Assembly (NCBI RefSeq): GCF_003334785.1
Contig: NZ_QOWV01000001.1
Length of the DNA: 64,000 bases
Source of the DNA: Escherichia coli
Lineage (GTDB): Bacteria > Pseudomonadota > Gammaproteobacteria > Enterobacterales > Enterobacteriaceae
Direction: 5' to 3' (one strand)
The notes beneath the pieces are model-generated. The model saw only the letters and a list, made by a program, of their open reading frames with translations, searched no databases and was not told the DNA's origin. The position numbers were made by a program, and so were the translations under genes. Position 1 is the stretch's first letter. Each line of letters opens with the position of its first letter. Shown here piece by piece: positions 57,080-60,235 of this stretch.

Positions 57080-59719
57080 ATGCTGGGTAAATATAAAGCC
57101 GTTCTCGCGCTGTTATTACTGATTATTCTTGTGCCGTTGACGCTGCTGATGACGCTCGGGCTGTGGGTTCCCACGCTGGCGGGCATCTGGCTACCGCTCG
57201 GGACACGTATTGCATTAGATGAAAGCCCACGCATTACGCGTAAAGGTTTAATCATTCCCGATCTCCGTTATCTGGTGGGAGATTGTCAGCTTGCGCATAT
57301 CACCAACGCCAGCCTTTCACATCCCAGCCGCTGGTTATTGAACGTCGGCACGGTAGAACTTGATTCTGCTTGTCTGGCGAAATTGCCGCAGACGGAGCAA
57401 TCGCCAGCCGCTCCAAAAACACTCGCGCAGTGGCAGGCCATGCTGCCTAACACCTGGATCAATATCGATAAACTGATTTTTTCTCCCTGGCAGGAATGGC
57501 AGGGAAAACTCTCTCTCGCATTAACCTCTGATATCCAGCAACTGCGTTATCAGGGCGAAAAAGTTAAATTTCAAGGCCAGCTGAAAGGGCAACAACTTAC
57601 AGTCAGCGAACTGGATGTCGTCGCGTTTGAAAATCAGCCGCCGGTAAAACTGGTGGGGGAATTTGCTATGCCGCTCGTGCCGGATGGACTTCCTGTAAGT
57701 GGGCATGCTACTGCGACGTTAAACTTGCCGCAGGAACCGTCACTGGTGGATGCCGAGCTGGACTGGCAGGAAAATAGCGGGCAATTGATCGTGCTGGCAC
57801 GGGATAACGGCGATCCGTTGCTCGATTTGCCGTGGCAAATTACTCGTCAACAATTGACCGTAAGCGATGGTCGCTGGAGCTGGCCGTATGCAGGTTTTCC
57901 TTTGAGTGGCCGACTGGGTGTCAAAGTCGACAACTGGCAGGCAGGGCTTGAGAACGCTCTGGTCAGCGGACGACTGAGTGTGCTGACCCAGGGGCAAGCG
58001 GGTAAGGGCAACGCGGTGCTTAATTTTGGCCCAGGAAAATTAAGCATGGATAACAGTCAGCTGCCTCTGCAGCTGACCGGTGAAGCGAAACAGGCGGACC
58101 TCATTTTATATGCCCGTTTACCTGCGCAGCTAAGTGGAAGTCTGTCTGACCCAACGCTGACCTTTGAGCCAGGCGCGTTACTTCGTTCAAAGGGAAGAGT
58201 CATCGATTCGCTGGACATCGATGAAATCCGCTGGCCTTTAGCGGGTGTAAAAGTCACCCAACGTGGTGTTGACGGACGTTTGCAGGCCATCTTGCAGGCG
58301 CATGAAAATGAACTGGGCGATTTCGTGCTGCATATGGATGGGCTGGCGAATGATTTTCTCCCTGACGCTGGCCGCTGGCAGTGGCGCTACTGGGGAAAAG
58401 GGAGTTTTACACCGATGAATGCCACCTGGGATGTCGCAGGAAAAGGTGAGTGGCATGACAGCACGATTACGCTGACCGATCTCTCCACCGGTTTCGACCA
58501 GTTACAATACGGTACGATGACGGTAGAAAAGCCGCGATTAATTCTCGACAAGCCCATCGTCTGGGTACGTGACGCACAGCATCCCTCCTTTAGCGGCGCG
58601 CTGTCACTGGACGCCGGGCAAACGCTGTTCACTGGCGGCAGTGTGTTACCGCCATCAACCTTAAAATTTAGCGTCGATGGGCGCGATCCTACCTATTTCC
58701 TCTTTAAAGGCGATTTACATGCTGGTGAGATTGGCCCGGTTCGGGTAAATGGTCGCTGGGACGGTATTCGTCTGCGCGGTAACGCCTGGTGGCCTAAACA
58801 ATCACTGACCGTATTCCAGCCGCTGGTGCCACCCGACTGGAAGATGAACTTACGCGATGGTGAACTGTATGCTCAGGTTGCATTTTCTGCTGCGCCTGAA
58901 CAAGGATTCCGCGCGGGAGGACACGGCGTGTTGAAAGGCGGTAGTGCCTGGATGCCAGATAATCAGGTTAACGGTGTCGATTTTGTCCTGCCTTTCCGTT
59001 TTGCCGATGGAGCCTGGCATCTGGGGACTCGCGGCCCCGTTACGTTGCGAATTGCCGAAGTGATTAATCTGGTGACAGCGAAAAATATTACGGCTGATTT
59101 GCAAGGGCGTTATCCGTGGACTGAAGAAGAACCCTTGCTGTTGACTGATGTTAGCGTCGATGTGTTAGGCGGTAACGTACTGATGAAACAATTACGTATG
59201 CCGCAACATGACCCGGCGCTGTTGCGGCTGAATAATCTCTCATCCAGCGAACTGGTTAGCGCCGTCAATCCGAAACAATTCGCCATGTCCGGGGCATTTA
59301 GTGGTGCACTGCCGTTATGGCTGAACAATGAAAAATGGATTGTGAAAGATGGCTGGCTGGCGAATAGCGGGCCGATGACATTGCGACTGGATAAAGACAC
59401 TGCGGATGCGGTGGTAAAAGACAATATGACTGCGGGTTCAGCAATTAACTGGTTGCGCTATATGGAAATTAGCCGTTCATCGACAAAAATTAATTTAGAT
59501 AATCTCGGTTTATTAACCATGCAGGCCAACATTACAGGTACCAGTCGCGTTGATGGTAAAAGCGGTACGGTAAACCTTAATTACCATCATGAAGAGAATA
59601 TTTTTACGCTGTGGCGCAGTTTACGCTTTGGCGATAATCTCCAGGCATGGCTGGAGCAGAACGCACGTCTGCCGGGAAATGACTGTCCGCAAGGAAAAGA
59701 GTGTGAGGAAAAACAATGA
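57080..59719 (+). CDS. ydbH: AsmA-like large envelope-spanning protein
   Basis: 879 aa ORF with N-terminal TM anchor and long beta-rich periplasmic region. Confidence 0.85.
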   Translation: MLGKYKAVLALLLLIILVPLTLLMTLGLWVPTLAGIWLPLGTRIALDESPRITRKGLIIPDLRYLVGDCQLAHITNASLSHPSRWLLNVGTVELDSACLAKLPQTEQSPAAPKTLAQWQAMLPNTWINIDKLIFSPWQEWQGKLSLALTSDIQQLRYQGEKVKFQGQLKGQQLTVSELDVVAFENQPPVKLVGEFAMPLVPDGLPVSGHATATLNLPQEPSLVDAELDWQENSGQLIVLARDNGDPLLDLPWQITRQQLTVSDGRWSWPYAGFPLSGRLGVKVDNWQAGLENALVSGRLSVLTQGQAGKGNAVLNFGPGKLSMDNSQLPLQLTGEAKQADLILYARLPAQLSGSLSDPTLTFEPGALLRSKGRVIDSLDIDEIRWPLAGVKVTQRGVDGRLQAILQAHENELGDFVLHMDGLANDFLPDAGRWQWRYWGKGSFTPMNATWDVAGKGEWHDSTITLTDLSTGFDQLQYGTMTVEKPRLILDKPIVWVRDAQHPSFSGALSLDAGQTLFTGGSVLPPSTLKFSVDGRDPTYFLFKGDLHAGEIGPVRVNGRWDGIRLRGNAWWPKQSLTVFQPLVPPDWKMNLRDGELYAQVAFSAAPEQGFRAGGHGVLKGGSAWMPDNQVNGVDFVLPFRFADGAWHLGTRGPVTLRIAEVINLVTAKNITADLQGRYPWTEEEPLLLTDVSVDVLGGNVLMKQLRMPQHDPALLRLNNLSSSELVSAVNPKQFAMSGAFSGALPLWLNNEKWIVKDGWLANSGPMTLRLDKDTADAVVKDNMTAGSAINWLRYMEISRSSTKINLDNLGLLTMQANITGTSRVDGKSGTVNLNYHHEENIFTLWRSLRFGDNLQAWLEQNARLPGNDCPQGKECEEKQ

Positions 59720-59901
59720 AAATTTTACTGGCTGCGTTGACGTCATCTTTTATGCTGGTTGGCTGTACGCCTCGCATTGAAGTCGCTGCACCTAAGGAAC
59801 CGATCACTATCAATATGAACGTTAAAATTAAGCATGAGATCATCATCAAGGCAGACAAAGATGTCGAAGAGCTGCTTGAAACTCGTAGCGATCTTTTCTG
59901 A
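59716..59901 (+). CDS. ynbE: small lipoprotein
   Basis: 61 aa ORF with lipobox MLVGC; start overlaps ydbH stop by 4 nt. Confidence 0.8.
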   Translation: MKILLAALTSSFMLVGCTPRIEVAAPKEPITINMNVKIKHEIIIKADKDVEELLETRSDLF

Positions 59902-59908
59902 GGTGATG

Positions 59909-60235
59909 ATGAAGAAAACATTACTTCTTTGTGCGTTTCTTGTTGGGCTGGTAAGCAGCAATGTAATGGCATTGACTCTGGATGAAGCCAGAACTCAGGG
60001 GCGGGTAGGTGAAACATTTTACGGTTATCTGGTTGCGCTGAAAACGGATGCTGAAACAGAGAAATTAGTAGCCGACATTAATGCCGAACGTAAAGCGAGT
60101 TACCAACAACTGGCAAAGCAAAATAATGTGTCGGTAGATGATATCGCGAAACTCGCCGGGCAAAAGCTCGTAGCTCGGGCCAAACCGGGGGAATATGTAC
60201 AAGGGATAAACGGTAAATGGGTGCGAAAATTTTAA
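59909..60235 (+). CDS. ydbL: periplasmic protein (DUF1318)
   Basis: ORF track 59834..60235; start taken at MKKTLLLCAF (108 aa) with signal peptide. Confidence 0.75.
   Translation: MKKTLLLCAFLVGLVSSNVMALTLDEARTQGRVGETFYGYLVALKTDAETEKLVADINAERKASYQQLAKQNNVSVDDIAKLAGQKLVARAKPGEYVQGINGKWVRKF

Follow-up and report, generated by a model that had tools for sequence, protein, structure and literature searches.

How phospholipids move to the Gram-negative outer membrane was long unknown, and three redundant bridges, one of which is YdbH–YnbE, are now credited with this task. The genes tamB, yhdP and ydbH are known to be synthetically lethal (PMC8593681). Among the three bridges, YdbH–YnbE is the one with the best-mapped outer-membrane connection, and published experiments cover the requirement for YnbE, the YdbH–YnbE and YnbE–YnbE contacts and the localisation of YnbE (PMC11126948). 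The YdbH–YnbE–YdbL system of E. coli K-12 (Kumar, Davis and Ruiz 2024, PMC11126948; De'Ath et al. 2026 preprint) is the same locus as the one described here, which lies in a window of 64,000 nucleotides, this being the whole stretch of DNA that was analysed. The locus is the E. coli ydbH–ynbE–ydbL operon; the system is already known from experiment, and nothing in it is new as a system. Its layout is as follows.

56873..57079, no strand assigned: divergent intergenic region between ldhA and ydbH, presumed operon promoter region on the basis of the gene coordinates.
57080..59719, plus strand: ydbH, 879 aa, ATG start, inner-membrane-anchored AsmA-like protein with a repeating beta-groove.
59716..59901, plus strand: ynbE, 61 aa, ATG start, mature form of 45 aa, outer-membrane lipoprotein annotated by RefSeq as YnbE family lipoprotein.
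59909..60235, plus strand: ydbL, 108 aa, periplasmic chaperone-like protein, with the RefSeq start.
60369..60409, no strand assigned: perfect 18-bp hairpin between the convergent ydbL and feaR genes, overlapping the feaR stop codon.

The original prediction had placed the three genes at 57080-60235 with proteins of 879 and 61 aa for the first two; both the open reading frame list and the raw sequence confirm these sizes, the single (plus) strand and the exact coordinates. K-12 and the window are alike in gene order, in the ATGA overlap and in having ldhA upstream and feaR downstream. Compared to E. coli K-12 MG1655, the locus carries a single-base difference, and across YdbH, YnbE and YdbL the sole amino-acid difference is YnbE E39K: the YdbH and YdbL proteins of K-12 are identical to those of the window, while its YnbE has E39 where the window has K39. 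The 3.5-kb region was found at a coverage of at least 80% in 5410 of 5426 complete E. coli genomes. This distribution, together with the family profile matches given below, leads us to conclude, at the level of sequence, that ydbH, ynbE and ydbL are real genes and not chance open reading frames. Copies of the locus labelled as plasmid-borne were discarded, as they proved to be mislabelled chromosomes or large non-mobilisable chromosome fragments, with no true plasmid copies among them.

A sigma-70 consensus scan returned no site within the ldhA–ydbH spacer, and in promoter and terminator scans of positions 56700-60500 the site counts did not exceed those of shuffles, with no site between the three genes. 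Downstream of ydbL, the fold of 60236-60410 reached -56 kcal/mol (z = -6.5). The 18-bp hairpin in this segment, which the consensus terminator scan did not call, is likely a terminator shared by ydbL and feaR, though it has no canonical T-run.

Specifically, YdbH matches Pfam PF11739 over residues 14-862 (E = 3.6e-291) and the NCBIfam equivalog NF007971 over residues 1-878, with 1400.9 bits against a cut-off of 824, and is thus a full-length family member. One element of the protein needs to be placed on the DNA.

57080..57193, plus strand: YdbH residues 1-38, N-terminal hydrophobic helix (membrane anchor), from hydropathy and the AF2 model.

The anchor is assigned to the N-terminus because the only Kyte–Doolittle 19-residue windows above 1.6 are those starting at residues 1-22. 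The AF2 model (mean pLDDT 87) has helices at residues 2-24 and 26-37, is 61% strand and includes 46 strands of at least 6 residues. These strands are amphipathic, with an even/odd hydropathy contrast of 2.41 compared to 1.57 +/- 0.17 in within-strand shuffles (z = 5.0). As modelled, YdbH therefore appears to have the layout of the AsmA-like clan, namely one N-terminal membrane helix followed by a long beta-rich periplasmic domain whose strands present a hydrophobic face. A PDB sequence search with the YdbH profile gave no match, and the structural match of YdbH to a bridge-like lipid transfer protein is not specific, since beta-barrels score higher. Altogether, the profile matches and the hydropathy bear out the gene names and the AsmA-like, N-terminally anchored nature of YdbH that had been put forward, and the lipobox and signal peptide described below do the same for a lipoprotein YnbE and a secreted YdbL.

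The junction between ydbH and ynbE shows two features.

59705..59709, plus strand: GAGGA Shine–Dalgarno motif of ynbE, located within the coding part of ydbH and separated by 6 nt from the ynbE ATG.
59716..59719, plus strand: ATGA stop/start overlap of 4 nt between the ydbH TGA and the ynbE ATG, read from the raw sequence.

The 4-nt overlap is the one originally reported. It is retained as ATGA in 63 of 80 Enterobacterales species and as a 1-nt overlap in 6 more, so that an overlap is kept in 69 of the 80. Coupling of ydbH and ynbE by termination–reinitiation has been shown experimentally and depends on upstream translation; in reporter constructs the Shine–Dalgarno motif is strictly essential for re-initiation at ynbE, and a local RNA structure blocking de novo initiation at the ynbE start has been proposed (PMC6728339). 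When we folded the 130 nt around this start (59617-59746), a structure could be drawn, yet it was not unusually stable (-30 kcal/mol compared to -32.1 +/- 3.4 in shuffles, z = +0.62).

YnbE matches Pfam PF13617 (E = 5.8e-16); the NCBIfam release searched holds no model for YnbE or YdbL. Four elements of the small lipoprotein are relevant to its function.

59755..59766, plus strand: lipobox L14-V-G-C17, with Cys17 lipidated and Thr at +2, no inner-membrane retention signal.
59803..59829, plus strand: YnbE I30-I38, amphipathic strand that docks on YdbH, from hydropathy and PMC11126948.
59830..59832, plus strand: codon 39 of ynbE, AAG (Lys) here and GAG (Glu) in MG1655.
59857..59883, plus strand: YnbE K48-T56, C-terminal helix and YdbL-binding site, helix residues from PMC11126948.

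A lipobox ending in Cys was found in all 80 Enterobacterales YnbE homologues, and fractionation has placed YnbE in the outer membrane (PMC11126948). Residues 30-44 have a mean Kyte–Doolittle hydropathy of +3.17 on one face and -2.07 on the other. N33 never varies among diverse homologues, and V36, H40 and I42 hardly do. The strand itself has been defined by AlphaFold-Multimer, photo-cross-linking and double-proline mutants. In vivo, YnbE cross-links to the C-terminus of YdbH, photo-cross-links were obtained at YdbH W791 and W857, YnbE forms ladders, and its proline mutants are non-functional (all PMC11126948). Cells lacking tamB and yhdP tolerate the loss of ynbE no better than that of ydbH, both being lethal (PMC11126948). 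In P. aeruginosa YdbH likewise depends on YnbE, and the same study points to some YdbH activity remaining when YnbE is missing and perhaps to additional partners in the outer membrane (PMC12447247).

The K39 allele of the window is rare, being exactly matched in 2 of 5040 E. coli genomes. At position 39, 79 of the 80 Enterobacterales species have E and the remaining one has D, and the 13 more diverse homologues all have E or D as well, making the position acidic in all 93 examined; accordingly, the conserved core reads INMNVKI[E/D]H, and the window differs from it in having K39 at the acidic position. This is an allele-level deviation and gives no ground to exclude the window's YnbE from the family. 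The substitution inverts a charge on the polar side of the strand region through which YnbE docks on YdbH and stacks on further YnbE copies. As every homologue examined has an acidic residue here, and as the K37P/E39P mutant is dominant-negative, E39K could alter YnbE self-multimerisation or docking on YdbH, although we consider a functional effect rather unlikely. Should it have one, the YdbH–YnbE bridge of this strain would be naturally hypomorphic or altered in stoichiometry, with the effect masked by redundancy with TamB and YhdP. E39K, a charge reversal that occurs naturally but rarely at a site otherwise always acidic, might also be used to probe how YnbE stacks.

With regard to gene neighbourhood, all 80 Enterobacterales species have ydbH immediately before ynbE, and ydbL comes next after ynbE in 77 of the 79 that could be assessed. 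All 120 matches listed in the YnbE homologue search belonged to close Enterobacteriaceae and gave no distant context; distant loci were sampled instead through YdbH representatives at 50% identity and a YdbL tblastn search. Following this approach, of nine loci encoding divergent YdbH representatives (26-49% identity), eight had ynbE as the gene directly following ydbH. The small genes are thus co-conserved with ydbH beyond close relatives, contrary to the outcome that would have refuted the original prediction, with the complete trio in Proteus, Pseudomonas, two Photobacterium and Azospirillum. We found no such analysis in the literature searched; in quantitative terms, ynbE is nearly always beside ydbH, and ydbL is dispensable in some lineages.

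In the Pasteurellaceae loci, a gene for a polytopic membrane protein (HI_1241) is translationally coupled upstream of ydbH. HI_1241 had no NCBIfam or Pfam match in the releases searched and no PLSDB homologue, and no paper on it was found; its product is a candidate inner-membrane partner of YdbH.

The third protein, YdbL, matches Pfam PF07027 (DUF1318) over residues 18-107 (E = 2.2e-31) and, over residues 22-108, the PDB chain 28oj_A, 'Probable chaperone-like protein YdbL' (E = 8.5e-53). A second in-frame ATG is present at 59906, and 7 nt separate the ynbE stop from the ydbL start.

59909..59971, plus strand: YdbL signal peptide, residues 1-21; the crystal chain 28oj_A begins at residue 22.

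The tight coupling of the genes had been taken to suggest that both small partners are obligate subunits. This holds for YnbE, in view of the lethality of its loss in tamB yhdP cells, and fails for YdbL, whose gene can be deleted in a tamB yhdP-depletion background. The structure of YdbL, its binding to the C-terminal helix of YnbE and its toxicity in excess have been described (bioRxiv 10.64898/2026.03.16.712125). A stoichiometric third subunit of the bridge, capping or docking on the YdbH C-terminus along with YnbE, would agree with the AlphaFold-Multimer placement of YdbL at that end; such a role is nonetheless improbable given that, besides the viable deletion, YdbH–YnbE cross-links remain when YdbL is absent and excess YdbL kills tamB yhdP cells. 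In addition, YdbL is barely detectable in cells, and DegP degrades it in vitro unless it is bound to YnbE (bioRxiv 10.64898/2026.03.16.712125). The gene is also not found beside ydbH–ynbE in five Pasteurellaceae-type loci, in two metagenomic loci (L002 and L003) and in two Enterobacter species. YnbE proteins encoded next to a ydbL gene retain the terminal ...[LIV]F motif, whereas in those without such a neighbour the motif is degenerate, as expected if this tail exists to bind YdbL. Therefore, on the strength of the viable deletion, the persisting cross-links and the toxicity of excess protein, we conclude that YdbL is a chaperone-like modulator that limits YnbE multimerisation and not a structural subunit. 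The AlphaFold-Multimer modelling and deletion phenotypes that the original prediction proposed as checks are already published (PMC11126948).

All together, these data make it very probable that the product of the operon is one of the AsmA-like bridges TamB, YhdP and YdbH, three mutually redundant systems for outer-membrane phospholipid homeostasis, in which YnbE extends the groove and YdbL acts as a modulator. According to this model, the N-terminal helix holds YdbH in the inner membrane, from which the protein reaches into the periplasm as a long, twisted groove of beta-sheet that is hydrophobic on the inside. Ribosomes ending at the ydbH stop re-initiate at the overlapping ynbE start, keeping YnbE output in step with that of YdbH. 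YnbE is lipidated at Cys17 and then sorted to the outer membrane, where its strand I30-I38 joins the last YdbH strand by beta-strand augmentation, lengthening the groove and tethering it to the outer membrane. The modelled YdbH with one YnbE measures about 180 A, shorter than the periplasm of about 250 A. YnbE can also stack on itself, and YdbL, by binding the YnbE C-terminal helix, curbs this self-stacking so that YnbE docks on YdbH; YdbL is helpful but dispensable, and is harmful in excess. The travel of phospholipids along the groove, its direction and how many YnbE copies each bridge contains are parts of the model that we infer.

It is most improbable that YdbH–YnbE serves a cargo or role other than bulk phospholipid (lipoproteins, outer-membrane protein assembly), with indirect lipid phenotypes: lipid transfer by the pair lacks a biochemical demonstration, as PMC11126948 itself states, TamB was initially linked to the assembly of outer-membrane proteins, and the AsmA-like GspN is reported to aid lipoprotein transport in Acinetobacter (PMC12802150), but the redundancy of YdbH with TamB and YhdP, which also upholds the originally suggested link to envelope lipid transport, is specific to growth and outer-membrane lipid homeostasis (PMC8593681), the modelled YdbH strands would make an amphipathic groove, eukaryotic bridge-like lipid transfer proteins are homologues of the family (PMC11126948), and recent TAM cryo-EM and lipidomics papers favour phospholipid transport.

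Compared to the described systems, the phospholipid bridge proposed for YdbH–YnbE is similar to TamB–TamA in that an inner-membrane-anchored AsmA-like beta-groove protein needs an outer-membrane partner, and TamB is functionally redundant with YdbH (PMC8593681, PMC11126948). TamB is, however, much longer than YdbH, and its partner is the Omp85 beta-barrel TamA, whereas that of YdbH is the 45-residue lipoprotein YnbE; moreover, P. aeruginosa YdbH works without TamA (PMC12447247). YhdP, an AsmA-like paralogue, is redundant with YdbH and is proposed to have the same function (PMC8593681). Unlike YdbH, the 1,266-residue YhdP is thought to span the periplasm alone via C-terminal hydrophobic helices, and fusing its C-terminus to YdbH makes YdbH independent of YnbE (PMC12447247). 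The eukaryotic bridge-like lipid transfer proteins VPS13, ATG2 and BLTP1 have no detectable sequence similarity to YdbH, and their partners differ. Finally, YdbL–YnbE resembles the curli amyloid chaperone pair CsgC–CsgA, an analogy drawn by the authors of the experimental work, in that a small periplasmic protein stops runaway beta-strand polymerisation. The folds and families of the two pairs are unrelated, and, unlike in the curli system, YdbL binds a helix beside the polymerising strand, and the client that it serves, a lipoprotein, has to dock on YdbH.

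Inspection of the window bears out the gene positions and the 4-nt ydbH/ynbE overlap of the original prediction, with the ORFs lying exactly at the predicted coordinates:

57080..59719, + strand: ydbH, 879 aa; PF11739, E = 3.6e-291; NF007971, 1400.9 bits against a cut-off of 824
59716..59901, + strand: ynbE, 61 aa; PF13617, E = 5.8e-16
59909..60235, + strand: ydbL, 108 aa; PF07027, E = 2.2e-31
59716..59719, + strand: ATGA shared by the ynbE ATG and the ydbH TGA, from the sequence

The ydbL start follows the ynbE stop by 7 nt. Specifically, YdbH has a single hydrophobic segment at its extreme N-terminus, YnbE carries an LVGC lipobox with Cys17 and a Thr at the +2 position, and YdbL has a cleavable signal peptide, the crystal chain 28oj_A starting at residue 22. 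The genes are flanked upstream by hslJ and ldhA, on the opposite strand, and downstream by feaR and feaB. Region 56873-60406 is essentially identical to that of E. coli K-12 MG1655, and 5410 of 5426 complete E. coli genomes carry it (at least 80% coverage), with the three genes annotated as ydbH, ynbE and ydbL. Three differences from MG1655 were found across 9,534 bases (53873-63406): YnbE E39K, a synonymous ldhA change and FeaR I136V, the latter two at 56357 and 60907. The YdbH and YdbL protein sequences are those of MG1655.

Since direct experimental literature on the system exists, AlphaFold-Multimer modelling and deletion phenotypes for YdbH-YnbE-YdbL have already been reported. Losing tamB, yhdP and ydbH together is lethal, and outer-membrane lipid homeostasis depends on their products (PMC8593681). 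In a tamB yhdP background, ynbE is essential to the same degree as ydbH, while ydbL is not (Kumar, Davis and Ruiz, PMC11126948). The same study found YnbE in the outer-membrane fraction and forming multimers, obtained in vivo photo-cross-links from YdbH W791 and W857 to YnbE with or without YdbL, described double-proline mutants of the YnbE strand as non-functional (K37P/E39P being dominant-negative), and showed that YdbL excess kills tamB yhdP cells (PMC11126948). De'Ath et al. (bioRxiv 10.64898/2026.03.16.712125) solved the YdbL structure, mapped YdbL binding to the C-terminal helix of YnbE, observed a decrease of YnbE multimers under YdbL excess, and reported that in vitro DegP degrades free YdbL and spares YnbE-bound YdbL. 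Furthermore, translational coupling by termination-reinitiation was demonstrated on a set of five E. coli gene pairs that includes ydbH/ynbE, and the coupling of ynbE strictly requires a Shine-Dalgarno motif within ydbH (PMC6728339).

The experiments in these papers showed that ynbE translation is coupled to that of ydbH, that YnbE sits in the outer membrane, is contacted by the YdbH C-terminus, self-associates and is functionally required, and that YdbL binds it with a dosage-sensitive effect. The anchor, the lipobox, the signal peptide, the stop/start overlap, the Shine-Dalgarno motif and the amphipathic strands are all read directly from the window sequence. We infer phospholipid movement along the groove and its direction, the manner of lipid entry at the inner membrane and the number of YnbE copies completing the bridge; modelled YdbH with one YnbE measures ~180 Å, against ~250 Å for the periplasm (PMC11126948).

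The YdbH AF2 model, built on a 33-sequence alignment (mean pLDDT 87), shows helices at residues 2-37, 46 strands of at least 6 residues (61% strand) and a C-terminal helix at 841-862. Hydrophobic/polar alternation along its strands is 2.41, compared to 1.57 +/- 0.17 in within-strand shuffles (z = 5.0; 0/2000), as would be expected of a sheet with one greasy face. YnbE residues 30-44 alternate likewise (+3.17 versus -2.07). A primary non-lipid role for YdbH-YnbE is unlikely.

From the tight coupling, the original prediction had suggested that both small proteins are obligate subunits. Its interpretation is right for the most part: it holds for YnbE, given the tamB yhdP results (PMC11126948), but was overstated for YdbL. 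The synteny check, whose Enterobacterales set came from a YnbE scan of one genome per species (80 species, about 35 genera), shows that the small genes are co-conserved with ydbH well beyond close relatives, the opposite of what would have refuted the original prediction.

Gene adjacency in the three sets of loci
Enterobacterales, 80 species: ydbH adjoins ynbE in 80/80; ydbL adjacent in 77/79 assessable
Divergent YdbH representatives (26-49% identity), 9 loci: ydbH adjoins ynbE in 8/9; ydbL adjacent in 0/7 assessable
YdbL homologues on chromids and mislabelled chromosomes, 6 loci: trio in 5/6; ydbL in 6/6 by construction

Of the 80 Enterobacterales species, 63 have ATGA at the ydbH/ynbE junction and another 6 overlap by 1 nt; the ynbE-ydbL gap is mostly 4-14 nt. 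Proteus, P. aeruginosa, two Photobacterium and Azospirillum also have the full trio. The one divergent locus without a downstream ynbE (L010, 3001..5922) encodes a 973-aa YdbH-like protein in an AT-rich genome; a convergent fur-like gene lies 211 nt beyond it. Apparent plasmid copies of the trio were rejected as labelling artefacts, the 4-5 Mb PLSDB "plasmids" being whole chromosomes (NZ_OL790696.1, NZ_CP134663.1, NZ_CP141089.1, NZ_OL790811.1, CP125156.1).

The less constant member of the trio is ydbL. Searches with phmmer and tblastn detected no ydbL-like ORF adjoining ydbH-ynbE in the Pasteurellaceae-type loci (L005-L009) or in two metagenomic loci, L002 and L003, the former sharing with E. 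coli an upstream ldhA and ydbJ; in two Enterobacter species ydbL was lost through local rearrangement. The ynbE genes without an adjacent ydbL are:

L002, 5655..5897: ynbE
L003, 2978..3184: ynbE
L061, 6001..6189: ynbE
L087, 5959..6144: ynbE
L005-L009: the ynbE of each locus

Where ydbL is adjacent, the YnbE C-terminus is a conserved helix followed by [LIV]F, with LF in 72 of the 80 Enterobacterales species and most of the other tails ending in LF, IF or VF, sometimes with two to four further residues. In the loci lacking ydbL, the tail is of unrelated sequence in the Pasteurellaceae-type loci and L003, extended in L002, and ends in DLL and DLHN, without the final F, in the two Enterobacter species. 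That YdbL is a true third subunit of the bridge, as its AlphaFold-Multimer placement and the W104A/K107A defects would favour, is unlikely. The tail pattern fits the published binding of YdbL to the YnbE helix and the genetic dispensability of YdbL, and speaks against YdbL as an obligate subunit; a full-text literature search by family accessions found no report of it.

Two further ydbL-family genes were observed. An orphan on Phenylobacterium zucineum plasmid NC_011143.1 (L012, 4980..5297), with no ydbH or ynbE nearby, is surrounded by stress genes (a DnaJ C-terminal domain protein, cbpM, a universal stress protein and sigma-32). A predicted 104-aa protein (P0035) from a 903-bp metagenome contig joins YnbE (PF13617) and YdbL (PF07027) domains, and may be a fusion through frameshift or read-through.

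At ynbE codon 39 (59830..59832) the window has AAG (Lys) and MG1655 GAG (Glu). A 61-nt query centred on this change matched exactly in 2 of the 5040 complete E. coli genomes with a match (JKHS016 and AST198). All 93 homologues compared have an acidic residue at position 39: among the 80 Enterobacterales species it is E in 79 and D in the remaining one, and a more diverse group, with Pseudomonas, Photobacterium, Azospirillum and Pasteurellaceae-type proteins among its members, has E or D in 13/13. The residue lies on the polar face, directly after the YdbH-pairing strand, and inside the longer strand of the predicted YnbE-YnbE stack (I30-I44 on I32-A46; PMC11126948). Given the two-residue offset of this model, in which residue 37 would face 39 of the next copy, E39K might replace a K37-E39 pair between copies by K-K. 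Protein comparison with MG1655 revealed no compensating change in YdbH or YdbL. Deletion of ydbH or ynbE alone has no phenotype (PMC11126948), so the allele could persist whether defective or not.

In the Pasteurellaceae-type loci, which have ynbE and no ydbL, a ~272-aa gene of family PF27206 (HI_1241) directly precedes ydbH, its stop overlapping the ydbH start:

L005, 2177..3001: PF27206 gene
L006, 131..949: PF27206 gene
L007, 178..990: PF27206 gene
L008, 2177..3001: PF27206 gene
L009, 1830..2654: PF27206 gene

Its product, a very hydrophobic polytopic membrane protein, is a possible lineage-specific inner-membrane partner of YdbH. Searches gave no NCBIfam match for it, no paper, and no homologue among the PLSDB records, mislabelled chromosomes of E. 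coli, Proteus and Klebsiella included.

Elsewhere in the window, ydbL and feaR converge on a perfect 18-bp hairpin (60369..60409), which overlaps the stop codon of feaR; a 175-nt fold containing it gave z = -6.5. The hairpin lacks a canonical T-run and was not called in the terminator scan. At the ttcA-uspF junction (49037..49214) the genes are ~176 nt apart with no prophage inserted, in DNA otherwise nearly identical to MG1655, and the same contiguous junction occurs in many E. coli genomes; in K-12, the Rac prophage lies at ttcA. Three known small RNAs scored above their Rfam gathering scores:

42745..42840, - strand: McaS
46218..46335, + strand: FnrS
51147..51267, + strand: MicC

In conclusion, the ydbH-ynbE-ydbL system is already known in detail, and the residual value of the locus is small, residing in the E39K allele, the covariation of the YnbE tail with ydbL, and the gene upstream of ydbH in Pasteurellaceae. 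In P. aeruginosa, the adjoining PA5307 (ydbH) and PA5306 (ynbE) show the same behaviour, and a periplasm-spanning YdbH-YhdP C-terminal fusion is independent of YnbE (PMC12447247).
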